Shown: one piece after another, positions 3,259 to 35,027 of the stretch
Position numbering within the stretch: the stretch's first letter is position 1
How the letters are laid out: each line of letters starts with the position of its first letter
NCBI GenBank assembly: GCA_964459345.1
Contig: CAYWMC010000001.1
Location: forward strand, 1 to 35,027
Direction of reading: 5' to 3'
Source of the DNA: an uncultured Klebsiella sp.
Lineage (GTDB): Bacteria > Pseudomonadota > Gammaproteobacteria > Pseudomonadales > Pseudohongiellaceae
DNA: 35,027 nt
The notes under the pieces: generated by a model
What the model was told of the DNA's origin: nothing
Databases searched by the model: none
Seen by the model: the letters and a program-made list of their open reading frames with translations, nothing else
Made by a program: the position numbers and the translations under genes

Positions 3259-3307
3259 TGTAACCCCCGCAAATGTCTGATTTTCAGGCGGGTTGTCCCG
3301 CCTGTAT

Positions 3308-3339: not shown

Positions 3340-3387
3340 AAGTCCATCCTCAATCAGGGCAAAGGTTTGGCAATGTGTGACATTCAA

Positions 3388-19873: not shown

Positions 19874-22099
19874 CTACTGTGGCAGATAACGATTGACCGG
19901 AGACGGCCCGAAGGACAGCCACGTCTGATTGCCGGTCTGATGGACACCAGGCTTCGACCAGTCACAAACCCCTTGTGCAAAGATCGTTTCAAGGCGACGT
20001 TTCTCGTCATCAGTGAAGCTCACTGTGTAGTCCTTGTAGTCGATGGGCTTGAGCTGGCACTTGAGCACATCGTTGCTCATGGGGCCACCGGCCACCAGGC
20101 GCAAACCAGCATGGGGCGGATACAAGGCGTTGCAGCGCGAACCAGTGTTGTCGAAGAGTCGGGCCTGGTCGTAAACAGCTTTCTCCACGATGCGCTCACC
20201 ATTCTCGGCAAAGCAGTCATCCTGCAGTGCAGCCGGACGCGCCTTGACGATTCTCTCCAGCATGCTCATTTCGGAACGATCAGCTTTCAGCGCCGCCAGC
20301 CATTCATCCATCAGCGCAAGATTCTCGTCAGCCAGTGACTGACTGGCAGGATGCCTGCGGATCACGTAATTGTCGGCGTGCCCGTTGTCCCGCTCCAGCC
20401 GGGCGCGCGTCGTGAAGGAGTACACGCTCGCATGAAAATTGCCTTCGTGGTCAAGATAGGGACGATCATCAATGATCGGCACCAGTGCCAGCCCGGCTGC
20501 CCCGCTGCTCACGCGGCCGGTTTCATACGCGATGCGGATGGCATCGTCGTCACCCACCATCCGCTCCGGAAGCGGGTTGAAGTCGATGTCCCAGCCGCCG
20601 AATTTTTCGTTGAGGTCCAGAAACAAGGTCGTATCGATCAGGCCTTCATTCAGTGCTGCAAGCCCGTACTGCACGCCGACGTTGTCATGGGGACTGACGG
20701 CGAACTCGCGACTGGCATTGATCTGCGCAAACAGCTTTTCACCGAAGATGTTGCGCATGCCGTCGTAAATGGAACACCGCACCCCTTCAGGGTTGCTCAC
20801 GGGATCGTAACGCGCGGGCACTGGAATCTCATCGGAGCAGCCATCCGGAGCAACACGGTCCGGTCGACTGCCCAATGACTCATCGCACAGATACCAGTTC
20901 GGCCAGCCGCCAAGGATGGCCTTGGTCTCGTCACTCAGGCCGCGCGCCGGATCATTCACGAACTGGCGCAGCGGTTGACTGCATTCCTGTGAATCCGTCA
21001 TGTAAGTCACGGCATCTGGAAATGTCATGCCGGGAATGATGCCGTCGAGAATGCCCGGGTAAGCACCGGCAATCAGCAGTTGCTGCATGGCACCGCCCGA
21101 GGCTCCATTGCCGATGGTATACACCGGCTCGCCGTACTGTTCGATGAAATGCTCCTTGAGCATCATCGCCGTCTCGGCGGACACCACATCGTTGCAGCCG
21201 CCCTGGGAATTCACGTTCAGCGTCGACGAGACCACGGCATAGCCTTTGCCGAGCATCGACGGACTGAGGACGCCCCCAGTGGCAGTCGCCTGGAAATAAC
21301 CCGGCTGACAGCCGCCTCCAAAGGTGTAGACGATGCGCTGGTTCCACGCTGCAGAGGGGCTCACAGCCGAAGGAGTGCCAGAAAGCGGATCATGCAGCAG
21401 CGCGATCTGATAGATCGCACGATTGAGGGTGCCCGTTTCCAGCCGGACGATGAACGGCACCTGGGTACCAGCCAGGGTGGTGGTCATTGCCAGGTCCGCA
21501 GGTCGCGGGCCCGCAGGATCCAGTGGCAGGAATCCGGACGTGTCCGCCGTGCTCCGATACACGTAGTCGATGCGCGTGGGCAGGGAACAGAATTCGTCCA
21601 GCGGGGTGTCATCCAGAAATTCCCCATTGCCAATGGCGAAGCGGCGCTTGCTGCCATCGGCCTCCGGGCTCAATTGTGCAAGACAGAAATAGGGCGTCTG
21701 ATGGGCGCCGGAAATGATCGGTCCGGTACGGGGGTAGTTGACCATGCTCAGTTGCGCCGCGCCTGTGCCGGAAAGCACCTGCAGGGTATTCTCGCCATCC
21801 ACCAGTCCGTCGAGCAGCACCCGATACTGGAACATGCCTCCCTGCTCGCCGACAGGCGTCAGGGCCGTCTGGACGGGTTCGCCATTGAGAAGCATGCTCA
21901 GTGCCGCTGCGCTTGCAACGCTGCTGCTGACTTCGATGAGTGCGTCGCCGCCGCTCAGAAGATGCGGTTGTCCGGAGATGACCTCCACGCCAATCTGCAC
22001 AGGCGTTTCGGGCCCGCAGGCTGCCAGCAGACAGGCCATGCCAGCGATGGAAAGGGGGGCTTTCAGGAAGGACTTTGTCATGATTGTTCTCATTGTCAT
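19874..22099 (-). CDS. Large lipoprotein, alpha/beta-hydrolase (tannase/feruloyl-esterase-like; I believe DUF6351-type)
   Basis: The 806-codon ORF is trimmed to the ATG cluster at 22099/22093/22081. That cluster precedes a lipobox signal (MTKSFLKAPLSIAGMACLLAAC). It has the GxSxG-type motif GNGASGGAMQQ and many Cys pairs. The C-terminal GVCDWSKPGV resembles that family as I remember it. Confidence 0.6.
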   Translation of the reverse strand: MTMRTIMTKSFLKAPLSIAGMACLLAACGPETPVQIGVEVISGQPHLLSGGDALIEVSSSVASAAALSMLLNGEPVQTALTPVGEQGGMFQYRVLLDGLVDGENTLQVLSGTGAAQLSMVNYPRTGPIISGAHQTPYFCLAQLSPEADGSKRRFAIGNGEFLDDTPLDEFCSLPTRIDYVYRSTADTSGFLPLDPAGPRPADLAMTTTLAGTQVPFIVRLETGTLNRAIYQIALLHDPLSGTPSAVSPSAAWNQRIVYTFGGGCQPGYFQATATGGVLSPSMLGKGYAVVSSTLNVNSQGGCNDVVSAETAMMLKEHFIEQYGEPVYTIGNGASGGAMQQLLIAGAYPGILDGIIPGMTFPDAVTYMTDSQECSQPLRQFVNDPARGLSDETKAILGGWPNWYLCDESLGSRPDRVAPDGCSDEIPVPARYDPVSNPEGVRCSIYDGMRNIFGEKLFAQINASREFAVSPHDNVGVQYGLAALNEGLIDTTLFLDLNEKFGGWDIDFNPLPERMVGDDDAIRIAYETGRVSSGAAGLALVPIIDDRPYLDHEGNFHASVYSFTTRARLERDNGHADNYVIRRHPASQSLADENLALMDEWLAALKADRSEMSMLERIVKARPAALQDDCFAENGERIVEKAVYDQARLFDNTGSRCNALYPPHAGLRLVAGGPMSNDVLKCQLKPIDYKDYTVSFTDDEKRRLETIFAQGVCDWSKPGVHQTGNQTWLSFGPSPVNRYLPQ

Positions 22100-22230
22100 T
22101 GCGGCTGTCTGCACGTGGAGGCGACTGTAAACCCAATGTTCGCCAACAGGCAAGCAGCCTGCCGCTGCCTTGCAATGGGGTCTGACGCAGGGTAGCTTAC
22201 GGGCTCTGACTCCTGAACTCGGAATCCTGC

Positions 22231-23031
22231 ATGTCAGATTCAATCCCTCTGGACAAAAGCCCCGGACGCTGTCTGCCCGCCCTGGTGGCGGCACTGTTGA
22301 TGGTGCTTGGCAGCCATAGTGCCGCGCAGCCGCTGGTCGACCCTTTCGTGCTGGAAACCCAGGACGTCGCCGGCGAGTTCGCCTTCGTGCGTCTGCAATA
22401 TGACAACTTCTACAGCGACGGCTTTCGCTCCGGCACCTGGCGCACCGACTTTCCCAGCGCCGACTCCAACTTCCTGCGCGGCGTGTCGCGACTGACCAAT
22501 GTGCGCGTCATGCGCGAACCGATAGTGCTGCGCTTCGATGACGACGAGATTTTCGACTACCCGTTCCTGTATGCCCTGGAAATGGGGCGCAATGGCGGAC
22601 CATGGTTCACGCCGGCAGAGCAGCAGAACATGCGGGAATATCTGTTGCGAGGTGGTTTTCTGCTGATCGATGACTTCTGGGGCACTCGACAGTGGGACAA
22701 TTTCTACCGTGCTTTCACAGAAGTGTTTCCTGACCGGCAGATCATCGAACTGCCGCCGGATCACGAGATATTCCGCAGCTATTACGATATCGACGGCCCG
22801 CAGATGATCCCTGTGATTGGCAACCCGGAGAACTACCCCGAACAGGATGTGGACAGGGCGACCAACCATGCCATTCTGGATGACGCGGGACGCGTGATGG
22901 TGCTGATCAACTGGAACTCGGACATGGGCGATGGCTGGGAACACACCTACGACCCCAGCTATCCGACACGGTATGCCAATCTGGCCTACCAGCTGGGCAT
23001 CAATTATCTGATCTATTCGCTGACCCATTGA
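22231..23031 (+). CDS. Exported DUF4159 domain protein (class-I glutamine-amidotransferase-like fold)
   Basis: It has a Sec signal. FAFVRLQYD, YPFLYALEMG, REYLLRGGFLLIDDFWG and DHEIF match my recollection of DUF4159. Confidence 0.7.
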   Translation: MSDSIPLDKSPGRCLPALVAALLMVLGSHSAAQPLVDPFVLETQDVAGEFAFVRLQYDNFYSDGFRSGTWRTDFPSADSNFLRGVSRLTNVRVMREPIVLRFDDDEIFDYPFLYALEMGRNGGPWFTPAEQQNMREYLLRGGFLLIDDFWGTRQWDNFYRAFTEVFPDRQIIELPPDHEIFRSYYDIDGPQMIPVIGNPENYPEQDVDRATNHAILDDAGRVMVLINWNSDMGDGWEHTYDPSYPTRYANLAYQLGINYLIYSLTH

Positions 23032-23971
23032 GTGCAGTCTGCTCGCGCCCTTCGCGCAGCGATGCACAGTAGTCTTCCGCGGAAACTGCCGGCGTGAACC
23101 ACAGGTAGTCATAGGGAAGCACGTCTGAAAACGCCTGCAGATAGTCCTGCGGGTTCTGCATCTCAGGGTTCACTTCCATGATCCCCACACTCACGACCGG
23201 GCCGTCCACAGCAGGCAGATAATTTGTCACCCCCAGATCGCGGCGCGCGTGAAAATTGCCTGCGATCAGCACGTGGACACCCTGCTCGCCTGCACCAATA
23301 CTCCTGGCCATGCTGGCATCTCGCGCCTGCTGCACGCGAACCATGGCCGGAAACTGACTCTCGGGCAACATGCCGCAGTGACTCTCATCGATCTCGGTGT
23401 ACAGCCTTTCCACCTGTGCGGCGCCCAGGGCCGAAGCCACTTCTTCGGGAAGCTCTGCGCCGTACACAGACATCATCTCGTCCATGCTGATATTGGCAGC
23501 GCGCAGCGGCACTCCCGCACGGGCAGTGTCCAGGATCAGCGGGCCATACAGATCCCATTGCCAGCCTTCCTCGTCCCACTGCAGGTGCGACTTGACTGCA
23601 CTTTCCGAAGCAAGGTCCACGCCTGCGAGGGTGTCCAGCGCCGCCTTCTGGCTGGAATCGAGCATCTCGAAACTCACCACGCCAAGATTGCCTGAGGCGT
23701 TCAATGCGGCGAGTGTTTCGCGCTGAATGGCATGGTGATCGGGGTTGTCATGCTTCTCGCCGAGAATTGCCACGCGCGACTCCTGGAGAACCGCCAGCAG
23801 CTGTGCCTGGTTGATGAAGGCATCGGCACGCGCGTCCCAGATTTTTCCGGTGAGGGCGTGTTCGACATACAAAGGGGACTGCCAGGAGGAGGCCGCATCA
23901 GCGATCTGATTGGCCGAGGAACAGGCATTCAGTAAAGACAGAAGAACTAGGGCGGCGCTCGGCAGTTTCAT
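23000..23971 (-). CDS. ChaN-family (haem/iron-associated, Tiki-superfamily) lipoprotein
   Basis: It has a lipobox (LLSLLNAC) and the ILGEKHDNPDHH motif. Its 3' end overlaps the DUF4159 gene by 32 nt in convergent orientation. Confidence 0.7.
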   Translation of the reverse strand: MKLPSAALVLLSLLNACSSANQIADAASSWQSPLYVEHALTGKIWDARADAFINQAQLLAVLQESRVAILGEKHDNPDHHAIQRETLAALNASGNLGVVSFEMLDSSQKAALDTLAGVDLASESAVKSHLQWDEEGWQWDLYGPLILDTARAGVPLRAANISMDEMMSVYGAELPEEVASALGAAQVERLYTEIDESHCGMLPESQFPAMVRVQQARDASMARSIGAGEQGVHVLIAGNFHARRDLGVTNYLPAVDGPVVSVGIMEVNPEMQNPQDYLQAFSDVLPYDYLWFTPAVSAEDYCASLREGREQTALNGSANRSDN

Positions 23972-23992
23972 GGCGTTCCTGATATCGCAGTG

Positions 23993-24487
23993 CTATTCGG
24001 GATTTTCCGGATATTCAAAATGCTGCAGGGTAGCAATACCGGGCTGCAATTCGGCCCAGTGTTCAATGGGCAAGCTCAGTGTCACGAGTCCGCAGGTGGG
24101 AATATTGTCGATACCGGCCCGGGCCAGGTCATTCGCAAGATCGGTGAGCGCCGGATTGTGAGCCACCAGCATGGCGCTGTCAGCCGACTCGTCGAAGAAG
24201 CTGATCAGCTGTTGCAGCTTGGGGCTGCCCGCCAGATAGATCTGCCGGTTCTCCTGAATGCAGTCAGGCCCCTTCCCCAGCACGTCGCAGACTATGCGCG
24301 CCGTGCTCAACGCACGCACTGCCGGGCTGCTGACAACCAGGTCGACACTAACCCCACGAGCCTTCAGTCGGGCGGCCATTTCCGGCGCGTCCAGAACGCC
24401 GCGTTCATCAAGGGGTCGGTCGTAATCTTTTTGGTCGGGCGCCGCCCAGCTCGATTTTGCGTGTCGGAGCAGATAAAGCGTCTTCAT
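23993..24487 (-). CDS. SixA-like histidine phosphatase family protein
   Basis: It is trimmed to ATG 24487 (MKTLYLLRHAKS is the RHG catalytic motif). AHNPAL is the second catalytic His region. It ends 21 nt upstream of chaN. Confidence 0.75.
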   Translation of the reverse strand: MKTLYLLRHAKSSWAAPDQKDYDRPLDERGVLDAPEMAARLKARGVSVDLVVSSPAVRALSTARIVCDVLGKGPDCIQENRQIYLAGSPKLQQLISFFDESADSAMLVAHNPALTDLANDLARAGIDNIPTCGLVTLSLPIEHWAELQPGIATLQHFEYPENPE

Positions 24488-24595
24488 GGGTCGGATGAAA
24501 TCCTCGGGTTGCGAAGGGCTGGCCAATGACCCTGCCGGGAGCGAGAGTTGCCGGGCATTCTACGCGAATACGGGGGTCTGGCCAGAAAAAGCGGC

Positions 24596-24675: not shown

Positions 24676-26400
24676 TCAATAAGCGGCTGCGCCCCCTGCG
24701 CTGCGGGGATCCGAGGTTGCCTCGATCGTGCCGTCCTGCACCACGATGGAGTTGGCATCGCCGTAGGCAAACCCCGCCTCTTCGAAGCCACGGTGCCCCA
24801 TGGCTTCCAGAGTGGAGCGGGTCTCGACACTGATGGAATCACGCTCGAAGCGGATCTGGTCGGGCTTCCACTGGTGATAGAAACGCGGACTCGCCACCGC
24901 TTCTTCCACGTCCATGCCGTGATCGATCACGTTCATCACGATATGGAGAACCGTATTGATGATGGTTGAGCCGCCCGGAGACCCGGTGACAAGTACGGTG
25001 GCCCCGTCCTTGACGACAATCGTCGGTGTCATCGAGCTGAGCATGCGTTTGCCAGGCTCGATCTTGTTGGCTTCGCCACCCAGAAGCCCGTACATGTTGG
25101 GGCTGCCGGGCTTGGCAGAGAAGTCATCCATTTCGTTGTTGAGCAGGAAGCCGGCGCCGGGCACCACGATGCGATTGCCGTAGCTGCCATTCAGCGTGGT
25201 GGTCACTGACACTGCATTGCCCTGTCCGTCCACGACGGAGTAGTGCGTGGTGTCCATGCTCTCGTCTACCCAGTTGCCGGCGAAGATCTCTTCGCTGTCG
25301 CTGGCGGCCTGCGGGTCCATGTCCTCGAAACGCTCCAGGGCATAGTCCTTGCTGATCAGCTTGTCGATGGGCACGGGATAGAAGTCGGGATCACCCAGGT
25401 GCTCGGCGCGATCGGCATAGGCACGACGCAGTGCCTCCACTGTCAGATGCACAGTCTGGGAACTGCCCCAGCCAAGGGTGCCGATGTCGTAAGGCTCCAG
25501 CATGTTCAGAATCTGCATCAGCACCACGCCGCCGGAAGACGGTGGGGGCATTGACCATATCTCATAGCCGCGATAGTCGCCGCGAATCGGCTCGCGCCAC
25601 ACCACATCGTAGGACTCGAGGTCTTCGTGACTGATCAGTCCGCCATTGCGCTGCATCTCGGCAACAATCAGGTCGGCGGTGGGCCCCTTGTAGAATCCAT
25701 CACGCCCCTGTTCAGACACTCGTTTCAAGCTCTCGGCCAGGTCTGCCTGCACAAACAGATCGCCTGCACGGTAGGGCGAGCCGTTGTTGCTGAAGATGGC
25801 CTGCGATGCCGCGTGGCGCTCGAAGTAGGGCATGGTGTCGCTGAAGTCGCCGGCAAGATCTTCGTTCAGCACGAAGCCTTCTTCCGCCAGTGCGATGGCC
25901 GGTGCCAGCACCTGCTCACGTGTCATCGTGCCGTGCTTTTCCAGCGCGTCGAGCATGCCGGCCACAGAGCCCGGCACGCCGGAAGCCTGCAGGCTGAACA
26001 GCGAAAGCTCGCGGTCCACATCGCCGTTGGCATCCAGGAACATGTCGGTGGAGGCGGTCAGAGGCGCCTTCTCGCGGTGGTCCTGCGTCAGCACTTCACC
26101 ATCGGCCAGGCGAATGACCATGAAGCCACCCCCGCCAATGTTGCCGGCGGAGGGATACGTCACGGCCAGAGCGAAGCCCACGGCAACGGCAGCGTCAATG
26201 GCATTGCCCCCCTGCCGGAGTATCTCCACACCCACTTCAGAGGCCAGCGCCGAGCGGGAGCTGACAGCCCCGTTGCTGCCCGAGACCGTATTGGCAAACG
26301 CGCCGCCACCGAAGCCCTGCAGCACAACCAGCAGCGCCACCAGCATGCGCGCCAGGGGCTTTCTGAACGTCAGTGATCTGATCGAGACGGCTTTCAACAT
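24676..26400 (-). CDS. ggt: Gamma-glutamyltranspeptidase (periplasmic Ntn hydrolase)
   Basis: It has a signal peptide. The autoprocessing/nucleophile region DTTHYSVVD is present, along with GSPGGSTIINTV. GGAG is upstream. It starts 30 nt after the oxidase gene. Confidence 0.93.
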   Translation of the reverse strand: MLKAVSIRSLTFRKPLARMLVALLVVLQGFGGGAFANTVSGSNGAVSSRSALASEVGVEILRQGGNAIDAAVAVGFALAVTYPSAGNIGGGGFMVIRLADGEVLTQDHREKAPLTASTDMFLDANGDVDRELSLFSLQASGVPGSVAGMLDALEKHGTMTREQVLAPAIALAEEGFVLNEDLAGDFSDTMPYFERHAASQAIFSNNGSPYRAGDLFVQADLAESLKRVSEQGRDGFYKGPTADLIVAEMQRNGGLISHEDLESYDVVWREPIRGDYRGYEIWSMPPPSSGGVVLMQILNMLEPYDIGTLGWGSSQTVHLTVEALRRAYADRAEHLGDPDFYPVPIDKLISKDYALERFEDMDPQAASDSEEIFAGNWVDESMDTTHYSVVDGQGNAVSVTTTLNGSYGNRIVVPGAGFLLNNEMDDFSAKPGSPNMYGLLGGEANKIEPGKRMLSSMTPTIVVKDGATVLVTGSPGGSTIINTVLHIVMNVIDHGMDVEEAVASPRFYHQWKPDQIRFERDSISVETRSTLEAMGHRGFEEAGFAYGDANSIVVQDGTIEATSDPRSAGGAAAY

Positions 26401-26430
26401 GTTTCTCTCCAGGGGTGCTCAGCGCACGGG

Positions 26431-28026
26431 TCAGGCGCTTGTGGCCTCGGCGCGGACGCGGGCGTCCAGATCAGCCAGAGCGACGTGTGCCGATTGGATG
26501 GCGCTTTCCATCCAGGCTGTGTGGTGACTGACCTGGTCGCCGATACACCAGTAACGTCCATCCACAGAACCCTGCAGCCTGGCGAAGATCGCCTGCTCTT
26601 CCGGGGTCTCGACGTTCCAGCGTGCGGAGCAGCCCAGCATGTAGTTCATGCGGTGCCACGCAATGGTGACGCCTTTCTCGACCTGCTGACGGTAATCCGG
26701 ATGCACTTTCTCGCCCTGAGCAATCATCGCTTCGATGCGCTGTTCCTGGGTCATGCGCGTGAATGGCATGCCGTTGCCGTAATCGTAGGCAGCAAGGACC
26801 ACGCCCTTCGCCTTGTGAATGCCGTGCGGCGGGTACCAGATCTGGCGGATAGGCTGATTGGTCCAGCTGATGCCGCCGTAGATGCCCTGCTTCTCCCAGA
26901 AGCGTTCCTTCGCCTGGAAGGCCCCCTTGTAGGCGGTGCCGCGGCGAATGTATTTCATGGCCTGCACATAGTCGGCCGGCAGGTTGTTCTCGATGCCGCT
27001 CATGAAATGGCTGGGGATGCAGTTGAAGCAGTAGTCGGCTTCGATGGCGTGAGTCTGCCCGTCCTGGCGATACTCGACGGTGACGCCCTTGTCAGTCAGA
27101 TTGGCGCTCAGGACAAACGCGCGGTACTTGATCTTGCCTTCCAGCTGACGCGTGAATCCTGCAGGAATGCGGTCCATGCCGCCGGTGGGCTGCATCAGCA
27201 TCGGGCCGGTTTCACCTTCGTTGTCGCTGATGACCTGGCGGGCGGCATTGGCACGCAGCAGATTGCGCACATCGATCATGTCCTTCTGGACGGTGTGAGT
27301 GACATAGTTGCCGGAGGCGTAGCCTGCGCGGGTGCTGCCGGTGTAACGGTTGTCGCGTCCAAGATCGCCGAACGCGCGGATCATGCCCATGACCAGCTCA
27401 GCTTCTTCGTCGGTGAAAGGCTGATCCAGTTCGAGATCGGTCATGGCCTTGGACATCAGTTCAGCCATGAAGCCCCTCACATTGGTGGTGAATTCGGCAT
27501 TGCGAAAAGGCTTGCCGCCCATGACGGCGTCGTCCTGAATCCAGGCCATCTTGTTTTCGTTGATGAACAGCTCGAGGTTGACGCCCAGCTCCTTGCAGTA
27601 GTGCAGGGTATTGCTGTGCGTGCTGGGGATACGGGCAGCGCCGCCATTGAAGAACAGGTGCGGCTCATCGTCCCATTCGCAGTACTGGGGATTGCCGATC
27701 TCGTCGATCAGAGTGCCGGCGCGGACGGTGAAGATGCGGCCGCCGGCACGATGGGAACCTTCCAGAACGGTGCAGTCATAGCCGGCCTTGCCAAGCTCAT
27801 AGGCCACGGTGAGTCCGGAGATACCGGCGCCAAGGATGACAACCTTGCGATTCTGGTTGCTCAGCCGGAGCAGTTCGGGAACAGAGGCTGTTGCGCTGCT
27901 GGGGATCATGCCCAGCGCCCCGGTAATGCCGAGGACGGCAGCGGTACCGCCTGTGGCGGCGATCAGATTCAGGAATTCTCGACGGGTAACTGGAGTTGAC
28001 ACTTGCTGATCCTCTTTGGAAATCAT
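26431..28026 (-). CDS. Tat-exported FAD amine oxidase, L-amino-acid-oxidase-like
   Basis: The twin-arginine signal TRREFLNLIAATGGTAAVLG is present. It has the dinucleotide fold VVILGAGISGLTVAYEL..VLEGSHRAGGR. GGMDRIPAGF resembles the LAAO motif GGMDKLP. Confidence 0.8.
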   Translation of the reverse strand: MISKEDQQVSTPVTRREFLNLIAATGGTAAVLGITGALGMIPSSATASVPELLRLSNQNRKVVILGAGISGLTVAYELGKAGYDCTVLEGSHRAGGRIFTVRAGTLIDEIGNPQYCEWDDEPHLFFNGGAARIPSTHSNTLHYCKELGVNLELFINENKMAWIQDDAVMGGKPFRNAEFTTNVRGFMAELMSKAMTDLELDQPFTDEEAELVMGMIRAFGDLGRDNRYTGSTRAGYASGNYVTHTVQKDMIDVRNLLRANAARQVISDNEGETGPMLMQPTGGMDRIPAGFTRQLEGKIKYRAFVLSANLTDKGVTVEYRQDGQTHAIEADYCFNCIPSHFMSGIENNLPADYVQAMKYIRRGTAYKGAFQAKERFWEKQGIYGGISWTNQPIRQIWYPPHGIHKAKGVVLAAYDYGNGMPFTRMTQEQRIEAMIAQGEKVHPDYRQQVEKGVTIAWHRMNYMLGCSARWNVETPEEQAIFARLQGSVDGRYWCIGDQVSHHTAWMESAIQSAHVALADLDARVRAEATSA

Positions 28027-28091
28027 TGCTTCTCATGACACAGCGTCGCGCAAGCAATCCACTCGCGACACAGGGGGTTTTCACAGGCTGG

Positions 28092-28146
28092 ATTATTCCG
28101 GGCCGGCCCGGGAAAGTCCTCCCAAAAATCTTCTGAAAACCTCCTA
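28092..28146 (-). promoter_or_regulatory. Copy C of the shared promoter/operator element, upstream of the oxidase-ggt operon
   Basis: The minus strand reads TAGGAGGTTTTCAGAA GATTTTTGGG AGGACTTT (28146-28113), then 15 nt, then AATAAT (28097-28092). The ATG lies 66 nt downstream of the AATAAT hexamer. Confidence 0.6.
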
Positions 28147-28196
28147 ATTCCGCTGCACACCAGAGTATTCCTGCCCCATCGCAGCCAGCGTCCGGC

Positions 28197-28225
28197 TTGA
28201 CCTTGCGCCGTTTCTAGGCTCTACT
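28197..28225 (+). promoter_or_regulatory. Possible sigma70-type promoter of the regulator gene
   Basis: TTGACC (28197-28202), a 17-nt spacer, then TCTACT (28220-28225). This rests on a weak hexamer match only. Confidence 0.25.
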
Positions 28226-28292
28226 TCAGTTACTCATTCAGTACGCGCATCCAAAGACGGACGCTGTCCGCTCACTCAAGAACGATCAAGCC

Positions 28293-30386
28293 GTGGCATC
28301 CGACAAAATCAACAAGTACAGGATCGGCGATTGGGAAGTATCGCTGACAACATGCACCCTCACCCAGGGCGAGAACGAGGTGAAAGTCACCCCTCGCAGC
28401 ATGGACGTGCTTGATTGCCTTGCGCAGAATCCTGGCGACGTCATCAGTCACGAAGAACTCCTGAAACGCTTCTGGCAGGGCACCTTCCCGTCCGATCATG
28501 CAGTGCACAAGGCCATCGCCGAACTGCGCAGCGCCCTGGGCGACGACGCACACAATCCGATCTACATTCGCACCATTCCGAAGCGCGGCTACTCCCTGAT
28601 CGCGGAAGTCGTGCGCCCGCAGATGCCGGGCGCCGAGGGCACAAACGAGTCGGGAGCCGAACTGTTGTCGGCCGCGACAGCACGCAGCTCACCGCCATTC
28701 ACTGCCTTGCTGGACAGGCGCCTGGTGGCCGGTATCGCGGCTGCCGTGGTTCTACTCGCAATGCTGATCTGGCCCGGCAGCCAGGTCGTCAGCGACAAGG
28801 ACGAGGTAGTCCGCCTTGCCGTGCTGCCCTTCATCAATCGCGGCCTCAATACCGAGAACCAGTTTCTGACAGACGGGCTGCGGGAGTCCCTGGTGGACGG
28901 CCTGTCGAAACTCAGCCACATGGAAGTCCTCTCCCCGTCACGCGGCCTGGCCGATGAAGAGGAGAGCCGCCGCTCCGAGCGCGCCGCCGACCGCGGCCGG
29001 GATCTCAATGCCGACCACGTGCTGCACGGCAGTGTGCAGACCGCCGAAGGGCGCATGCGGGTAACGGTGCAGTTGACCCGCGCGAGCGATGGCGTCCACC
29101 AGTATTCCGAGCAGTTCGACCTGCCGATCGAAGACCTCTTTGCCCTGCAGGACCAGATTGTCTCGAATGTGGTCAGCGCCCTGAGCGTCCATCTGGACGA
29201 GACAGAGCGTGAACAGATGCTGGACTGGGGCACCACCAATGCCATCGCCTATGAGCGTTTTCTGCGTGGTGAGTTCTACTACAACCAGTTCAGCCCCGAT
29301 GACTTCCAGCGCGCCATCGACTACTACATGTCCGCCCTGGAGGCCGATCCGGGATTCGTGAACGCTTACCATGGCGCGGCCACCGCCGCCAACAACATGG
29401 CCGTTTACAGCAGCAGCGCCCGCATTCAGGAACTGAGCGAGCTGATCAGCAGCATCCACCGGGAAGTCGCCCGTATCGCCCCCGACAGCGAGGCGCTCCA
29501 TGCGATCAACGAAATCAAGCTGCGCATGAGCGGCACCAGTCAGGTACAGCAGGAAGTGCAGTTGCGCGAACAGATTCTGTCCGGCAATCCACCCGACTAC
29601 GCCATGGCCCATTACGCGCTGTTCCTCATCGGCGCCCGCCTGTATGAAGAGGCCTCACAGTTTCTGGACAAAGCGAACGAAGTCGGCCCGTTCGAGATTT
29701 CTCCCGACGAAGTCTGGAGCTATCGCAGCAATATTCAGGCGCCACGCGCCATGCTGCTGTCTGCCAAGGGCCAGCTTCAGGAACGCCCCTACCATGTGGG
29801 TTTTCTGGGCACTGTTGCCACGAACCTTGCCCTGGCGGGCGACTTCCGCCAGGCCGGGATGTACCTGAGCCGCCAGCGCGATGTGGACAAGGACGGCATC
29901 CTTGCGCATTACAGCGAGGCGGTGATTGGCTTCCTCAGCGGCGAAATCGTGCTCGGCAACGAGGCCTATCAACGCATCATGAGTGCAGGTGAAGACTTCA
30001 ATTTCACCAAGGGCGCCCTCAGCTTCATGCTGGGCGACGTGGAAACCGGCGTGGCCTTCTGGCGCAGCATCCCGCCGCTGCAGAAGCGTCGCCTGTTCAA
30101 TGTCACCCACGGCGCGGAGAAGTATTTTCCAGACGCCGTTCTGGAGGACCCCCGCTACCAGAGCGTCCTGGAAGAACTCGATTTCGGCATTTCCTGGCAG
30201 CGCCGGCTCATGGAAGGAGTCATCGCCATGGAAGCGGTGACTGGCGTCAGCCTGAGCGAAAGCGCTACCAAGGCCTACGAGTCCGGCACCTTCATGTCCC
30301 GCAACAATCTCTGGAAACCCGAAGACTGGGCAGAACTGGAGTCCCGCAAACTTGCCGGAATGCAGCCCCGCGGCATTCTTGACTGA
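28293..30386 (+). CDS. ToxR/CadC-like membrane-anchored transcriptional regulator: N-terminal OmpR/PhoB-type winged helix, one TM segment, periplasmic TolB-N-like + TPR-like domain
   Basis: YRIGDWEV...LTPRSMDVLDCLAQNPGDVISHEELLKRFWQG...VHKAIAELRSALGD...YIRTIPKRGYSLI is the wHTH domain. The TM segment is LVAGIAAAVVLLAMLIW. It is followed by RLAVLPFINRG. The GTG start is uncertain. Confidence 0.8.
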   Translation: MASDKINKYRIGDWEVSLTTCTLTQGENEVKVTPRSMDVLDCLAQNPGDVISHEELLKRFWQGTFPSDHAVHKAIAELRSALGDDAHNPIYIRTIPKRGYSLIAEVVRPQMPGAEGTNESGAELLSAATARSSPPFTALLDRRLVAGIAAAVVLLAMLIWPGSQVVSDKDEVVRLAVLPFINRGLNTENQFLTDGLRESLVDGLSKLSHMEVLSPSRGLADEEESRRSERAADRGRDLNADHVLHGSVQTAEGRMRVTVQLTRASDGVHQYSEQFDLPIEDLFALQDQIVSNVVSALSVHLDETEREQMLDWGTTNAIAYERFLRGEFYYNQFSPDDFQRAIDYYMSALEADPGFVNAYHGAATAANNMAVYSSSARIQELSELISSIHREVARIAPDSEALHAINEIKLRMSGTSQVQQEVQLREQILSGNPPDYAMAHYALFLIGARLYEEASQFLDKANEVGPFEISPDEVWSYRSNIQAPRAMLLSAKGQLQERPYHVGFLGTVATNLALAGDFRQAGMYLSRQRDVDKDGILAHYSEAVIGFLSGEIVLGNEAYQRIMSAGEDFNFTKGALSFMLGDVETGVAFWRSIPPLQKRRLFNVTHGAEKYFPDAVLEDPRYQSVLEELDFGISWQRRLMEGVIAMEAVTGVSLSESATKAYESGTFMSRNNLWKPEDWAELESRKLAGMQPRGILD

Positions 30387-30500
30387 GCCACTGCGCAGCC
30401 GCAAGCTCCCACCCTTCCCGGCAACGTCCTGCCCGCCAATCCTCACCAAACCCCTGAGCAATTCGCGAAAACCCCAATGAATTCAATCCTCGAACAGCTC

Positions 30501-30555
30501 TAGGAGGTATTCAGAATGTTTTAAGTAGGACTTTGGGGAGGTCACTGCAGATAAT
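30501..30555 (+). promoter_or_regulatory. Copy A of the shared promoter/operator element, upstream of the TonB-dependent receptor
   Basis: TAGGAGGTATTCAGAA TGTTTTAAGT AGGACTTT (30501-30534), then 15 nt, then GATAAT (30550-30555). The ATG is at 30652. Confidence 0.6.
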
Positions 30556-30651
30556 CGGGGTGCTATCAAGGTCGGGCCCCTATACCCACAGTACAAGGAA
30601 CCCGGTCTCTCTTTCGCAACTAAAGAAACGAATGAAAAGGGATAAGTAACT

Positions 30652-33189
30652 ATGAAAATATCAAATCTGCTGACTCTGTCGTCGGTTGCCGCCCTGCTGG
30701 GCTCAGTGGCAGCGACTGCACCAGTCGCCATGGCCCAGGCGCCAGCGGCTGAAGAAATCGAAGAAGTTGTAATCATCGGTTCACGCCGCGCTCCGCGCAC
30801 GGCGCTTGACTCCGCTGCGCCCGTAGACGTGTTCTCTGCCTCCGACTTCCAGGACCAGGGCACCGCCGACATGAACGACCTGCTGCGCAACCTGGTTCCA
30901 ACGTTCAACGTGGACGTGCAGGACATCAACGACTCCAGCAGCCTGGTACGCCCCGCTACTCTGCGCGGCCTGCCTGCAGACGACACGCTGGTGCTGGTGA
31001 ACGGCAAGCGCCGTCACCGCTCCGCCGCTGTGCAGTTCGGCCGTCAGGGCACGCACTTCGCAGACGTGTCCCAGATTCCTCCGATTGCACTGCGTCAGGT
31101 AGAAGTTCTGCGTGACGGCGCGGCCGCTCAGTACGGTTCCGACGCCATCGCCGGCGTGATCAACTTCCAGCTCAAGGAAAATCGTGAAGGTCTGTCAGTA
31201 GAAACCAAGACAGGCATTCTGACCGAGACCAATGACGGCCAGCTCAACTACGTTGCAGCCAACCTCGGCCTGCCGCTGGGCAACAATGGTTTTGCCAGCC
31301 TGAGCATGGACATGACCAACCAGAAGCGCAGCGACCGCAGCATTCAGCGCGGCGACGCGCAGACGCTGATCAACAACGGCAACACTGCAGTGCGTGTGAA
31401 CGCCCAGCACCAGGGTCTGCCAGACACCGAGATCGTCAACCTGTTTGCGAACGTCGGTCTGGACCTGGGCAATGACCAGGAGCTTTACTCCTTCACCGGT
31501 TACAGCGAGAAGGAAGTGGAACTCGGCTTCTTCTTCCGCAACCCTGAAAACCGTGGTGGCGTGTTCACCAGCGGCGCCAACCAGCTGTTCTTCGACCAGA
31601 CGCCTGGCACTGGCACAACCTGCCCGACCATTCCGCGCGGCGTGAATGCAACAACCAAAGTCACCAGCTCCGTTGCAGCACGCAATGCCGGCCTGGCTGA
31701 CCCGACCTGCTTCACCTTCCTGGAGTGGTTCCCAGGTGGTTACACCCCTGACTTCGGCGGCAAGAACGTCGACATGTCCAACGTGACCGGCCTTCGTGGC
31801 GAACTCAACGACGGCACCACGTACGACCTGAGCCTGGGCAATGGTTTCTCCGAGATGACCTACATGATCTCGAATACCACCAACCCGTCCATGGGCCCGA
31901 ACTCTCCTACCAGCTTCGAGCCAGGCATCTACACGACGATCGAGAACAACATCAACCTCGACCTGTCCAAGCCGTTCGACGTGGGCTTGTACTCGCCGCT
32001 GAACGTTGCCTACGGTCTGGAATGGCGTCGTGAGATCTTCAAGGTTGGTTCAGAAGATCAGGATTCCTACCGCATCGGCGAATACTCCAATCTTGGAGCA
32101 GGCGTGGGTTCTGACGGCTTCCAGGGTTTCGGCCCGGACCAGCAGGGCACCTGGGATCGCAAGAACTGGGCGATCTACGCTGACCTCGAAGTGGACGTCA
32201 CCGAGCAGCTGCTGCTGGGCGCCGCGATCCGTTACGAAGACTTCTACAACACCTTCGGCGGCACCACCAATGGCAAGCTGACAGCACGTTACGCGCTGAC
32301 AGAGACGACCAACATCCGCAGCACGATCAGCACGGGATTCCGCGCACCGTCACCGGGTCAGGCCAACATCTCCAACATCAGCACCGGCGTTGTAGACAGC
32401 ATCCCTGTGACACAGGGCCAGATTCCTCCGACCAACCCGATCTCTCAACTGTTCGGCGGCAAGGAACTGACTCCGGAAGAGTCCACCAACTACAGCATCG
32501 GTGTAGCGACAGAATTCGGCGGTCTTGATCTGACCATCGACTACTACCGCATCGACCTGGATGACCGCATCCTGAACTCTGCAACCTTCGACATCACGCC
32601 GGCGATTGCAGCGCAACTGGAAGCATCAGGCATCTCTGGTGCACGCAGCATCGTGTCCTTCAACTACTACACCAACGACATGTCCACCACCAACGAAGGT
32701 GTGGAAATCGTAGGTTCGTGGGGCATGGACTGGGAAGACTTCGGCAACACCGAGTTCGCCGCTTCCTGGGCCTGGACCAAGCAGGAGCTGACCAAGTTCA
32801 CACCTGGCCTGCTGACCCGCGCCAACGTGGCTGACCTGGAAGACGGTATCCCTGCGAACCGTGGCAACTTCCGCGCGAACCACACTCTGGGCGACTGGAG
32901 AGTCACGCTGCAAGCCAACTACTACGATGAGTACCTGTCAGTTCCAGCCAACGCCATTCCGGCGCGCGATTACTGGGTCGGCAGCGAGATCATCTTCGGC
33001 AGCGAAGTGGCCTACACCCTGCGTGACCGTTACACGTTCATCGTTGGTGCGGACAACATCCTCAATACGGCGCCTGAGAAGGTCCGTCCTGTGGATTTCA
33101 ACGCCACCACCAGCAACAAGTACGTCACTGGCGGCGCGTTCAGCCCGAACGGCGCCTTCTGGTACGCACGCTTCAAGATGGACATCTAA
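30652..33189 (+). CDS. TonB-dependent outer-membrane receptor (no N-terminal signalling extension)
   Basis: A signal peptide is followed directly by the plug start EEIEEVVIIGSR. VEVLRDGAAAQYGSDAIAGVINF is present. The barrel is long. Confidence 0.9.
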   Translation: MKISNLLTLSSVAALLGSVAATAPVAMAQAPAAEEIEEVVIIGSRRAPRTALDSAAPVDVFSASDFQDQGTADMNDLLRNLVPTFNVDVQDINDSSSLVRPATLRGLPADDTLVLVNGKRRHRSAAVQFGRQGTHFADVSQIPPIALRQVEVLRDGAAAQYGSDAIAGVINFQLKENREGLSVETKTGILTETNDGQLNYVAANLGLPLGNNGFASLSMDMTNQKRSDRSIQRGDAQTLINNGNTAVRVNAQHQGLPDTEIVNLFANVGLDLGNDQELYSFTGYSEKEVELGFFFRNPENRGGVFTSGANQLFFDQTPGTGTTCPTIPRGVNATTKVTSSVAARNAGLADPTCFTFLEWFPGGYTPDFGGKNVDMSNVTGLRGELNDGTTYDLSLGNGFSEMTYMISNTTNPSMGPNSPTSFEPGIYTTIENNINLDLSKPFDVGLYSPLNVAYGLEWRREIFKVGSEDQDSYRIGEYSNLGAGVGSDGFQGFGPDQQGTWDRKNWAIYADLEVDVTEQLLLGAAIRYEDFYNTFGGTTNGKLTARYALTETTNIRSTISTGFRAPSPGQANISNISTGVVDSIPVTQGQIPPTNPISQLFGGKELTPEESTNYSIGVATEFGGLDLTIDYYRIDLDDRILNSATFDITPAIAAQLEASGISGARSIVSFNYYTNDMSTTNEGVEIVGSWGMDWEDFGNTEFAASWAWTKQELTKFTPGLLTRANVADLEDGIPANRGNFRANHTLGDWRVTLQANYYDEYLSVPANAIPARDYWVGSEIIFGSEVAYTLRDRYTFIVGADNILNTAPEKVRPVDFNATTSNKYVTGGAFSPNGAFWYARFKMDI

Positions 33190-33228
33190 GTCCGTCGCAC
33201 TTTCTTAGTGCAATGTAAGTCAATGCAA

Positions 33229-33258
33229 AGGGTGCCACTTCGGTGGCACCCTTTTCTT
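33229..33258 (+). terminator. Strong Rho-independent terminator after the receptor gene
   Basis: The perfect 10-bp stem AGGGTGCCAC / GTGGCACCCT has a TTCG loop. It is followed by TTTCTT. Confidence 0.85.
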
Positions 33259-33276
33259 ACCAGGAGATTCGCGCAT

Positions 33277-33906
33277 ATGTTTCGCAAAGTAGTAGTTCAA
33301 TTGCTGGCAGTTTTCGTCATGGCTCTGGCCACTGCGGGCAGCTGGGCGGCCGAGCCACACGAGCCGGTCAATCATCGATTCTGTTTCACCTGCCACGGCA
33401 CCGACGGCATTGGCAGCGAAGGCATCAACGGCCCGCGCCTGGCCGGCATGGAGCCTTGGTATCTCAAGCGTCAGCTGGAGCTGTTCCGGGCCGGTGGGCG
33501 TGGCAAGCATCCTTCTGACTATCACGGCATGGAAATGCAGCCCATGGCGGTCATACTGACTGACGAGAATATCGCCGACATTCTGGAGTGGGCAGCCACC
33601 TGGGAGTATGTCCCGGCAACGCCAACCATCAGCGGTGGCAATGCAGATCGCGGTCGCCAGCTCTATCAGGCCTGCGCGAGCTGTCACGGCGCTGCGGCAG
33701 AAGGCAGCGAAGCCATGAATGCCCCCCAGCTGGCCGGTCAGAATGACTGGTACCTCGTTACACAGCTGAAGAACTTCAAGGCAGGGTATCGCGGCGTGGA
33801 CCCTCTGGATCAGTACGGCGCGATGATGCGCACCATGACTTCAGGACTTGCCGACGACCAGGCCATTGTGGACGTTGTCAGCTACATCAACACACTGGGA
33901 CGCTGA
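33277..33906 (+). CDS. Periplasmic di-haem cytochrome c, c4-like
   Basis: It is trimmed to ATG 33277 (CAGGAG 10 nt upstream, signal MFRKVVVQLLAVFVMALATAGSWA). It has two CxxCH motifs (CFTCH, CASCH). Each is followed by P(R/Q)LAG...Y...QL..F..G.RG and Met-rich ligand regions. Confidence 0.85.
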   Translation: MFRKVVVQLLAVFVMALATAGSWAAEPHEPVNHRFCFTCHGTDGIGSEGINGPRLAGMEPWYLKRQLELFRAGGRGKHPSDYHGMEMQPMAVILTDENIADILEWAATWEYVPATPTISGGNADRGRQLYQACASCHGAAAEGSEAMNAPQLAGQNDWYLVTQLKNFKAGYRGVDPLDQYGAMMRTMTSGLADDQAIVDVVSYINTLGR

Positions 33907-33949
33907 AGCGCGTCCAATTGCACAGACCCCTACTACAAGAGGCCTCAAC

Positions 33950-34426
33950 ATGACCAGATTCACCAAAGTAGTTTCCCTTTCTGCCGCCCTGTTCGCCGCC
34001 GCCTTCGCGGTCAGCAGCAGCGCTCAGGAAATCGTTCGCACCGGCGAAGGCCGCAATTTCTTCAACAACATCTTCATTCCAGCCGGCGCCGAGACGCTGT
34101 ATCTGAGTGGGGCTGGCGCAGATCCGCTTCCTGATGGCAGCTACGGCGACATGGAGCAGCAGACGGTCGACACCTTCAACAAATTCAAGGCCACGCTGGA
34201 AGAGCAGGGCTGGTCCATGGCTGACATCGTGCAGGTGCGTGTATTCGGCGTGGCCGGAGACGACGGCACCTTCGACTTCGCCGGCTTCAACCGCGGTTAC
34301 CAGCAATTCTTCGGCACCGAAGAGAACCCCATGAAGCCAGTGCGCTCTGTGGTGGAAATCGCTGATCTGGTGGTAGACGGATGGTTGGTCGAGATCGAAA
34401 TCCGCGCATCCAGAATGCCGAAGTAA
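33950..34426 (+). CDS. Exported RidA/YjgF/UK114-family protein (paralogue 1)
   Basis: It is trimmed to ATG 33950 (AAGAGG upstream). The Sec signal is MTRFTKVVSLSAALFAAAFAVSSSA. The family core is present, with KPVRSVVEI aligning to E. coli RidA PARSCVEV, so the imine-deaminase Arg is retained. Confidence 0.8.
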   Translation: MTRFTKVVSLSAALFAAAFAVSSSAQEIVRTGEGRNFFNNIFIPAGAETLYLSGAGADPLPDGSYGDMEQQTVDTFNKFKATLEEQGWSMADIVQVRVFGVAGDDGTFDFAGFNRGYQQFFGTEENPMKPVRSVVEIADLVVDGWLVEIEIRASRMPK

Positions 34427-34436
34427 TGCCCTCCCG

Positions 34437-34473
34437 CTGGCAGGAAGGGACCACTCTCCCCCCTTCCTGCCAG
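34437..34473 (+). other. Perfect 13-bp hairpin 11 nt after the RidA-1 stop, with no U-tract
   Basis: CTGGCAGGAAGGG (34437-34449) pairs with CCCTTCCTGCCAG (34461-34473). The loop is 11 nt. The following sequence is CCGCTTCTGCC. Confidence 0.5.
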
Positions 34474-34597
34474 CCGCTTCTGCCGCTCCAGACATCCCTC
34501 GATTGACTCAAAAACAAGCTTCTCCCTTTTCTCCCGGAACTCCGCAAATTTCTCCCACTGGCCGGACATGATCCGGAATCAGTGTTTTATCGCCTTG

Positions 34598-34619
34598 TTC
34601 TGCAAGCCATTTCTGCAAG
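34598..34619 (+). repeat. Direct repeat TTCTGCAAG x2 (period 13 bp) abutting copy B of the shared element
   Basis: The copies are at 34598-34606 and 34611-34619 and are identical 9-mers. Confidence 0.5.
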
Positions 34620-34672
34620 TAGATATTCAGAACAAAACAGGTAGGACTTTCAGCAGCGCTCTTCCCGATACT
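34617..34672 (+). promoter_or_regulatory. Copy B of the shared promoter/operator element, upstream of the second RidA gene
   Basis: AAGTAGATATTCAGAA CAAAACAGGT AGGACTTT (34617-34650), then 16 nt, then GATACT (34667-34672). The ATG is at 34784. Confidence 0.55.
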
Positions 34673-34783
34673 GCGTGTGCCTTTACGCTCGCATCAACAT
34701 GAACATGCAGACGCTGAGAAGGTGAGAGCCAGCAGGCCCCTTTTTCAGCGCCACACGCCAACCCATCGACGAGGAACCGCCCT

Positions 34784-35027
34784 ATGAAAACTCTGTTCAA
34801 GACTGCATGCCTGACAACTGCCCTGGCTGCGACGCTTTTCGCTGCCACTGCCAGCGCCCAGGAGATTGTCCGCACCGGTGAAAGTCGCGTGCTGTTCAAC
34901 AACATCTACATACCCGCAGGTGCCGAGACGCTGTATCTGAGCGGTGCTGGTGCTTCCGCGGCCGCAGACGGCAGCTGGGGCAACATGGAGCAGCAGACGG
35001 TCAACATCTTCGAGAAATTCAAGGCAA
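34784..35027 (+). CDS. Exported RidA-family protein (paralogue 2), 5' part only, running off the window
   Basis: It is absent from the ORF track because it has no stop in the window. My own translation is MKTLFKTACLTTALAATLFAATASAQEIVRTGESRVLFNNIYIPAGAETLYLSGAGASAAADGSWGNMEQQTVNIFEKFKA. GAGGAA lies 7 nt upstream. By hand count, 43 of 56 mature residues are identical to paralogue 1. Confidence 0.8.
   Translation, partial: MKTLFKTACLTTALAATLFAATASAQEIVRTGESRVLFNNIYIPAGAETLYLSGAGASAAADGSWGNMEQQTVNIFEKFKA

Follow-up and report, generated by a model that had tools for sequence, protein, structure and literature searches.

We analysed a 35,027-nt stretch of DNA (hereafter the window) from a freshwater gammaproteobacterium, in which a block of seven genes at positions 24676–35027 encodes a flavin amine oxidase, a gamma-glutamyltransferase (GGT), a CadC/ToxR-like membrane regulator, a TonB-dependent outer-membrane receptor, a di-haem cytochrome c4 and two exported proteins of the Rid family, here called Rid_A and Rid_B. 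Together, these genes may form a locally regulated module for oxidative deamination in the periplasm. As the first part of the window (1–19.8 kb) holds housekeeping genes (purA, hflXKC, miaA, mutL, amiB, tsaE and nnr), the cluster is chromosomal. A preliminary description of the same DNA had placed the seven genes at the coordinates given below and assigned export signals to their products. Both claims held: the genes lie at these positions and the soluble products have Tat or Sec signal-like N-termini, as read by eye and with a hydropathy scan. For comparison, one genome per species was scanned for relatives of the oxidase, which yielded 253, and the best 80 were kept as loci (L numbers below). 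These come mostly from Pseudohongiellaceae-like metagenome-assembled genomes (MAGs) of fresh, ground and sea water, and from SAR86.

The oxidase gene (26431–28026, minus strand) encodes 531 amino acids (aa), of which residues 69–514 match the flavin amine oxidase family PF01593 (E 2e-34); PF13450 also matches and a GAGISG motif is present. Its best solved relative, similar over the full length, is the L-amino-acid oxidase (LAAO) of Rhodococcus opacus (2jae, E 5e-73, residues 59–528), and vertebrate LAAOs match at E 1e-28 to 1e-35. The Arg and Tyr that we take to bind the substrate alpha-carboxylate in the R. opacus and vertebrate LAAO structures have aligned counterparts here, R132 (within AARIP) and Y414, and both residues are invariant in 13 oxidase homologues. 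Equally invariant in this set are the twin arginines R15/R16 of the N-terminus, which by eye is of Tat type, with V-T-R-R-E-F-L, a hydrophobic stretch and then ATA followed by S. More than 1100 homologues of the oxidase were found. An exact-sequence look-up returned no identical product on record for the oxidase and did return the 158-aa Rid_A protein. No nicotine enzyme was among the 60 best of the 97 PDB matches to the oxidase, which falls outside the three NicA2/Pnao-related clades surveyed previously (PMC12224317) and has LAAOs as its closest solved relatives. On the strength of these alignments, we predict that the oxidase is a member of the LAAO clade and the catalytic core of the pathway.

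The cytochrome gene (33277–33906, plus strand) encodes a 209-aa di-haem cytochrome c4 with a Sec-type signal, two PF00034 stretches and the haem motifs CFTCH and CASCH. Its solved relatives are the c4 structures 1etp and 6q2u (E 1e-13 to 1e-14) and a c-type cytochrome entry, 5lo9. Rid_A (33950–34426, plus strand; 158 aa, Sec-type signal, PF01042 E 3e-15) is Rid3-like: among solved structures, it is most similar to those of two Rid3 proteins, PSPTO_3006 (E 7e-24) and PFL_1385 (E 2e-20), and the RidA-type YabJ matches at 5e-9. KPVRS and IEIE of Rid_A align with KPART and IEVE of PSPTO_3006, showing that the catalytic Arg (R105 equivalent) and Glu are kept. Rid_B, assigned by reading the sequence, is a second exported Rid3-like paralogue that starts at 34784 on the plus strand and is cut by the window end at 35027; the full gene, read in L001 and L082, encodes 158 aa, with KPVRT in the L001 protein. 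At the DNA level, Rid_A and Rid_B form a repeat of 78–86% identity. By match scores, and with subfamily labels taken from earlier work (PMC5619798), the Rid proteins are closest to the Rid3 subfamily, and we predict from its sequence that Rid_A is a 2-imino-acid deaminase.

The receptor gene (30652–33189, plus strand), the first of the receptor–cytochrome–Rid_A unit, encodes an 845-aa TonB-dependent outer-membrane protein with plug and barrel Pfam domains. Its N-terminus is Sec-like, with a basic start, a hydrophobic core and an AxA-type site, as are those of GGT, the cytochrome and both Rid proteins. Similarity of the receptor to solved structures is limited to the generic plug domain and involves siderophore receptors, among which PirA and FepA are most similar, and B12 receptors. 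A copper-chelate receptor family (PMC12914433) had been considered for its link to respiration and was rejected, its solved structure not being among the receptor matches. A weak terminator-like hairpin of 7 pairs (33177–33196) overlaps the receptor stop, 80 nt before the cytochrome gene, and might attenuate read-through into cytochrome–Rid_A. On the minus strand, GGT (24676–26400; 574 aa, Sec-type signal, PF01019 E 4e-169) scores 583 bits with TIGR00066 against a cut-off of 358, at the NCBIfam equivalog level, and its translation contains the catalytic/autoprocessing Thr motif DTTHYSV (TTHYS). The GGT gene begins 30 nt past the oxidase stop. Neither a terminator-like hairpin in this 30-nt gap nor an operator copy of its own before GGT was found, and the gene is probably co-transcribed with the oxidase.

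Between the two strands' units lies the gene for the regulator (28293–30386, plus strand; 697 aa, PF00486 E 1e-17), a CadC/ToxR-like one-component membrane protein. It matches the CadC model NF007540 (E 5e-33) at the N-terminus only, CadC and PDB matches being confined to residues 9–116; the DNA-binding domain is related to those of CadC (5ju7, E 3e-17) and ToxR (E 4e-10). Like these proteins, the regulator combines an N-terminal winged helix with a single transmembrane (TM) segment and a periplasmic C-terminal domain. The helix is cytoplasmic and of OmpR type, without a receiver domain and without a signal peptide, and the hydropathy scan places the TM segment at residues 144–162. Unlike CadC and ToxR, the regulator has a periplasmic domain of ∼535 aa that gives weak TPR matches and, judged by NF007540 and the PDB matches, no similarity to their sensor domains; as a whole, this domain is not known to have relatives. 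In Microbulbifer, which belongs to another order, the orthologous regulator (L081:5927–6889; E 4e-51) is only 320 aa long. Winged helix, TM segment and membrane-proximal periplasmic module are all retained in it, and it lacks the region after residue ∼327, which holds the weak TPR matches. As the operator described below is still present next to this short regulator (L081:7060–7125), the region past residue ∼327 may be dispensable for the basic switch. Two assignments of the preliminary description thus stand: the oxidase is LAAO-like and the regulator is ToxR/CadC-like. Its proposal of imine hydrolysis by periplasmic Rid is supported in that the Rid proteins have kept the catalytic Arg and have as closest relatives Rid3 proteins with deaminase activity on imines made by LAAO (PMC5619798).

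To see which of the seven genes belong together, we determined co-conservation by tblastn of the window proteins against the 80 loci, with presence counted in the 50 loci whose oxidase gene has at least 7 kb of flank on both sides. Cytochrome c4 was present in all 50, Rid in 46, the regulator in 33, the TonB receptor in 23 and GGT in 4; oxidase, cytochrome and Rid occurred all together in 46 of the 50. These counts show that the core is oxidase, cytochrome c4 and exported Rid, and that regulator and receptor are frequent companions. GGT was found at 7 of the 80 loci, solely L001–L005, L008 and L015. As only 4 of the 50 well-flanked loci carry it, GGT is a lineage-specific accessory inserted in the oxidase operon, a passenger rather than part of the core. 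The preliminary description had proposed that the genes form one pathway, with cleavage of gamma-glutamyl bonds as one of its steps. Gene neighbourhoods uphold the grouping of oxidase, cytochrome and Rid, and the recurrence of regulator and receptor, and do not uphold GGT as a core step. GGT releases glutamate, and as an add-on it may draw on gamma-glutamyl compounds to provide glutamate or other amino acids.

The core occurs in several arrangements. In the window type (28 loci), regulator and oxidase point away from each other, and (receptor)–cytochrome–Rid comes after the regulator; the receptor is present in 24 of these 28 loci, and also in Microbulbifer. The operon types are oxidase–cytochrome–SDF symporter–Rid, with the symporter confirmed in 31 loci, and the short form oxidase–cytochrome–Rid. 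In 45 of the 80 loci, the next gene downstream of the oxidase is that of the cytochrome, and a divergent regulator accompanies 14 of the 45 loci of the two operon types. In Microbulbifer, a divergent regulator gene is followed by receptor–oxidase–cytochrome–Rid. The window itself has the oxidase on the strand opposite cytochrome–Rid and therefore no single operon, the form seen in 45 relatives and in Microbulbifer.

The SDF symporter gene (for example, L035:12545–13945, and in 30 other loci) sits between cytochrome and Rid, and its products are 70–88% identical to each other; the window has no SDF symporter gene. SDF is a family of glutamate/aspartate/dicarboxylate transporters, and the symporter may serve to take up either the substrate or the 2-oxo acid made from it. 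Several genomes hold two clusters each (L002/L040, L007/L053, L008/L079, L048/L077 and L049/L078), with oxidases ∼60% identical; in the first three pairs, one cluster is window-type and the other operon-type. This suggests that paired clusters are paralogues with different specificities, and the window organism probably has a second cluster elsewhere. In L043, a 198-aa open reading frame (ORF; 2957–3553) stands right after the cytochrome gene at the usual place of Rid.

That the transcription units of the block share a promoter element had been part of the preliminary description, and the element is real. The motif TTCAGAA-N10-AGGACTTT occurs in exactly 3 copies in the window, compared with 0.02 expected by chance, and is conserved in relatives and metagenomes. 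All copies are intergenic and each points at its downstream gene, which is the oxidase for 28113–28137 (minus strand), the receptor for 30510–30534 (plus) and Rid_B for 34626–34650 (plus). Two extra AGGACTTT octamers, at 17451 (inside tsaE) and 22069, lack the rest of the operator and were discarded as chance matches. Alignment of 61 sites of relatives yielded the consensus tTtAGgAGGTaTTcaGAAggtTTTtgGGAGGACTTT, which defines a 35-nt operator of three direct GGAGG-type repeats (GGAGGTaTT, GAAGGTTTT and GGAGGACTT) set at intervals of exactly 11 bp. Between the AGGACT hexamer of the last repeat and a conserved (G)ATAAT lie 17 nt, indicating that this repeat occupies the −35 position. The promoter has a good −10 and a poor −35 that is overlapped by the operator. 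Such a layout is typical of promoters activated by winged-helix proteins of the OmpR/PhoB/ToxR type, and tandem direct repeats abutting a weak −35 are a further likeness to CadC and ToxR. By this analogy, we infer that the neighbouring CadC-like regulator binds the operator repeats.

In the window, the oxidase promoter (28092–28147, minus strand) consists of the operator at 28113–28147 (35 nt), a 17-nt spacer and the −10 AATAAT at 28092–28097. The promoter of receptor–cytochrome–Rid_A (30500–30555, plus strand) has its operator at 30500–30534, again a 17-nt spacer, and the −10 GATAAT at 30550–30555. The Rid_B operator copy (34616–34672, plus strand; operator 34616–34650, −10 GATACT 34667–34672) is degenerate in the first two repeats, and the same copy is found in L001. 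A sigma-70 consensus scan of the cluster found no promoter, in keeping with a poor −35 and dependence on an activator; the conserved −10 became visible only after alignment of the 61 sites.

To monitor how specific the operator is, a degenerate form of it was scanned across 241 million metagenome records. Of the 64 matches, 53 lay directly upstream of a module gene (oxidase 27, receptor 25, cytochrome 1). Another 4 were the same sites cut by contig ends, and the remaining 7 were chance-like and without GGAGG repeats. The operator appears specific to this module. In the receptor-less relatives L005, L017 and L019, it stands directly before cytochrome–Rid, indicating that receptor, cytochrome and Rid_A are one transcription unit in the window. 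In Microbulbifer, a three-repeat site (GGGAGGAATAT, AGGAGGTTTGC and AGGAGGACTTT) precedes the receptor–oxidase–cytochrome–Rid operon. When the same operator was sought in the loci whose regulator is divergent from oxidase–cytochrome–Rid, only scattered partial matches were found. The regulators of this second architecture, which are 45–52% identical, probably recognise a diverged site.

Parts of this module have been described before. A full-text literature search on LAAO with twin-arginine, cytochrome c and periplasm returned a single match, a 2016 study of Gluconacetobacter diazotrophicus PAL5, in which lao–cccA–ridA (GDI2456–2454) are co-expressed (PMC5053998). The lao mutants, and earlier ccm mutants, lose tryptophan-derived indole-3-acetic acid (IAA), and the loss in both fits a cytochrome-dependent LAAO. 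The authors proposed that cytochrome and RidA assist the LAAO, noted conservation of the cluster in Caulobacter and Xanthomonas and drew a parallel to Chlamydomonas (PMC5053998). Compared by its published description, the PAL5 cluster resembles the window in encoding a Tat-signal LAAO (533 aa and 34% identical to the R. opacus enzyme; 531 aa in the window) together with cytochrome c and Rid. Unlike in PAL5, the trio of the window is split over divergent units, oxidase–GGT and receptor–cytochrome–Rid. Added to it are GGT, a second Rid copy, a TonB receptor and a CadC-like regulator that has a defined operator, and the host is an aquatic gammaproteobacterium.

A second precedent is provided by NicA2 and Pnao, which were formerly called oxidases and use the cytochrome CycN (PMC12224317, PMC9396064). 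A 2025 survey with kinetics on 25 enzymes concluded that, within the flavoprotein amine oxidoreductases, a Tat signal together with an operonic gene for a Sec-exported cytochrome c predicts cytochrome-using dehydrogenases (PMC12224317). For the window, the oxidase has the Tat-type signal, and the gene for a Sec-type cytochrome c is in the same regulon and adjacent in relatives. With NicA2/Pnao the window system thus shares a Tat-exported flavoenzyme of the amine-oxidase fold, a co-encoded Sec-exported cytochrome c and a predicted electron flow to respiration; it differs in its LAAO clade, di-haem c4, predicted alpha-amino acid substrate and Rid partner. As the survey covers NicA2 relatives, without mention of L-amino acids (PMC12224317), the LAAO clade would be an additional case.

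The Rid partners, too, have counterparts. The Rid3 proteins PSPTO_3006 and PFL_1385 hydrolyse LAAO-generated imines and iminoarginine in vitro (PMC5619798), and a 2015 study reported that RidA and Rid3 genes cluster with FAD amine oxidase genes and that the in vivo substrates of exported Rid3 proteins are unknown (PMC4433059). The window proteins have Rid3 structures (PDB 9bka and 9bkc) as best matches and keep their catalytic Arg and Glu, and the PFL_1385 chain also begins with a signal-like hydrophobic segment. In contrast to these representatives, Rid is duplicated in the window and shares a defined regulon with genes for a cytochrome and an outer-membrane receptor. A eukaryotic analogue, as cited in the PAL5 study, is the periplasmic LAAO of Chlamydomonas reinhardtii, which with a Rid-like subunit frees ammonium from external amino acids (PMC5053998). 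By this description, it likewise pairs an LAAO with a Rid-family protein outside the cytoplasm; unlike the window system, it is eukaryotic and O2-dependent and is described without a cytochrome, a TonB receptor or CadC-like control. The preliminary description had known of no account of the gene combination as a unit. Absence of such an account holds for the additions and not for the core, as the oxidase–cytochrome–Rid trio (PMC5053998) and the clustering of Rid with amine oxidase genes (PMC4433059) are already described. New are the split divergent form, the CadC-like regulator with its three-repeat operator, the receptor in the regulon, the Rid duplication, the recruitment of GGT and the wide occurrence in aquatic Gammaproteobacteria.

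Overall, these data suggest a model in which a dedicated pathway under local control deaminates an alpha-amino acid oxidatively in the periplasm; to this model we assign a probability of roughly 0.6. In this model, the substrate would cross the outer membrane, here via the TonB-dependent receptor, and be oxidised to a 2-imino acid by the LAAO-clade FAD enzyme after its export by Tat. Re-oxidation of the flavin would fall mainly to the co-encoded di-haem cytochrome c4, so that electrons pass to the respiratory chain and little H2O2 is formed. The exported Rid3-type proteins would then convert the imino acid by hydrolysis into ammonium and a 2-oxo acid, both of which would be taken up. For regulation, the CadC/ToxR-like protein would bind the three repeats over the −35 of the oxidase(–GGT) and receptor–cytochrome–Rid_A promoters. 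The purpose may be nitrogen or carbon scavenging with a gain of energy. The receptor being part of the regulon, the substrate is perhaps scarce or larger than a common amino acid. An acidic amino acid that gives a dicarboxylic 2-oxo acid is an attractive guess, based on the specificity of the SDF family and the release of glutamate by GGT. The entry through the receptor had been proposed in the preliminary description, and the receptor does recur; it is, however, dispensable, and most loci of the second architecture carry the inner-membrane SDF symporter instead.

Several points weigh against this model. The oxidant, the substrate and the periplasmic Rid function of this clade are all deduced rather than established biochemically, binding of the regulator to the repeats is likewise a matter of inference, and signal peptides were judged by eye and hydropathy. 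The window does not have the cytochrome and oxidase genes side by side, and what links them there is the shared operator and synteny in relatives. Two window-type loci, L043 and L044, have no Rid match beside the cytochrome gene. Free amino acids normally cross porins, and a TonB receptor hints at a larger or scarcer substrate. In addition, the predictor of dehydrogenase behaviour was set up on NicA2-related clades with their own cytochromes c and not on an LAAO with a di-haem c4 (PMC12224317).

In a rival reading, the enzyme would be a true O2-using LAAO that releases H2O2 and ammonium in the periplasm or outside, for nitrogen scavenging or antagonism as in Chlamydomonas LAO1 and the Pseudoalteromonas LAAOs, with the cytochrome serving elsewhere, for example by feeding a peroxidase. 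The closest characterised relatives, the R. opacus and vertebrate LAAOs, are indeed oxidases, flavoprotein amine oxidoreductases that are exported by Tat and have no cytochrome nearby showed a fast reaction with O2 (PMC12224317), and the periplasmic LAAO–Rid complex of Chlamydomonas, as cited in the PAL5 study, scavenges ammonium (PMC5053998). Nonetheless, a cytochrome c4 gene accompanies the oxidase in 50 of the 50 well-flanked loci, usually as the next gene, and an adjacent cytochrome c was the stronger of the two predictors of dehydrogenase behaviour (PMC12224317). Genes for a catalase or a peroxidase are not apparent in the cluster. We therefore regard an O2-using enzyme as unlikely. The Tat signal and the co-encoded cytochrome c make it probable that the oxidase feeds the respiratory chain rather than O2 and, by analogy with NicA2, is a cytochrome-c-linked dehydrogenase, with cytochrome c4 as its predicted electron acceptor. 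Such an acceptor role had been suggested before as an option, instead of or beside O2; in light of the survey, the cytochrome is likelier to be the principal acceptor than merely an option (PMC12224317).

The substrate could also be a carboxylated amine other than a proteinogenic amino acid (such as a gamma-glutamyl compound or an opine-like, non-protein, D- or beta-amino acid) that is taken up by the TonB receptor, with all other steps as in the deamination model. Membership of the receptor in the regulon, the recruitment of GGT into the operon in one lineage, the several specificities suggested by paralogous clusters and the limited identity to the broad-range R. opacus enzyme (HMMER alignment of residues 59–528, E 5e-73) would all be in line with this. 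We consider it improbable, as no variation is seen in the carboxylate-binding Arg/Tyr pair that marks alpha-amino-acid oxidases, a Rid partner typically goes with 2-imino acids and nothing in the content of the cluster specifies an unusual compound. A still slimmer chance is given to a module that makes a signal or secondary product, such as indole-3-pyruvate or IAA from tryptophan, for interactions with algae or plants. Transposon mutants of the homologous-type lao lose IAA, the three genes are co-expressed (PMC5053998), and the architecture of a Tat-LAAO of ∼530 aa, cytochrome c and Rid is alike. However, the IAA loss of G. diazotrophicus also fits a broad-specificity catabolic enzyme, several genomes hold two paralogous clusters, and the uptake receptor here and the SDF symporter inside the operon of 31 relatives both point to import and catabolism. 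Finally, it is very improbable that the module serves iron acquisition, with 2-oxo acids as chelators and the TonB receptor importing the complex, as the preliminary description had offered as an alternative: although the receptor plug is most similar to those of the catecholate siderophore receptors PirA and FepA and a ChaN-type haem-binding lipoprotein gene lies ∼0.7 kb beyond GGT, the siderophore-receptor similarity is confined to the generic plug domain, the ChaN gene has no operator copy, a Fur box is absent from the intergenic regions of the cluster (best match 10/19 positions, at background level, in a weak test with an E. coli-type consensus), control lies with a CadC-like regulator that has its own operator, and most relatives have the oxidase–cytochrome–Rid trio without any receptor.

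If periplasmic oxidative deamination is what the cluster performs, amino-acid oxidation would take place in the periplasm of many aquatic bacteria and yield respiratory electrons and free ammonium but no peroxide, which bears on the recycling of dissolved organic nitrogen. The view of some "amine oxidases" as cytochrome-c dehydrogenases would extend to the classical LAAO clade, and exported Rid3 proteins would gain a concrete physiological partner. More tentatively, and at somewhat less than even odds, the LAAO-clade enzymes of the cluster could be obligate L-amino-acid:cytochrome c4 oxidoreductases that together with periplasmic Rid3 form a respiratory deamination pathway under a CadC-like switch, widespread in aquatic Gammaproteobacteria and a possible basis of ammonium regeneration. 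The flavin amine oxidase superfamily would then have acquired dehydrogenase chemistry independently once more. The pathway would span Pseudohongiellaceae-like lineages, SAR86 and Microbulbifer, and could be the missing bacterial source of the amino-acid oxidation that occurs outside cells in natural waters and of the ammonium regenerated there. Regulator and operator are unusually well defined, making induction experiments and substrate discovery easy to design.

Next to the block, at 19874–24526, the window encodes a tannase-like DUF6351 protein (806 aa), a DUF4159 protein, the ChaN-type haem-binding lipoprotein and a SixA-like histidine phosphatase, which are syntenic with the oxidase gene. 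Of the 80 relatives, 19 have SixA and ChaN; DUF4159 is a little rarer than these, and DUF6351 is the rarest; the motif search in the window found no operator copy before any of the four genes. Long antisense ORFs of up to 504 aa run across real genes (for example, 26485–27999 and 25627–26376, both on the plus strand) without family matches, and are the usual by-product of coding sequence with ∼60% G+C. Among the titles of the MAG records L001, L003, L012, L026 and L027 are Klebsiella pneumoniae, Klebsiella sp. and Rhodoferax sp. These names look like labelling errors, and gene content and synteny fit Pseudohongiellaceae-like relatives.

Just beyond the window end, a second TonB-dependent receptor of ∼960 aa is encoded ∼360 nt past Rid_B (L082:11668–14553). 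It follows Rid_B in 3 of the 4 contigs fetched for the Rid_A of the window strain (L082, L084 and L085), is absent from the closest reference MAG, L001, and is not preceded by an operator copy. Homologues with 53–59% identity adjoin the cluster in 9 of the 28 window-type loci (among them L006:11898–14723 and L021:265–3132), in varying positions and orientations. Past this second receptor, L082:15493–20477 encodes a DUF481 outer-membrane protein, a 539-aa protein with a Glu_synthase domain (PF01645), and the 2Fe-2S and molybdopterin subunits of an enzyme of the aldehyde-oxidase/xanthine-dehydrogenase type.

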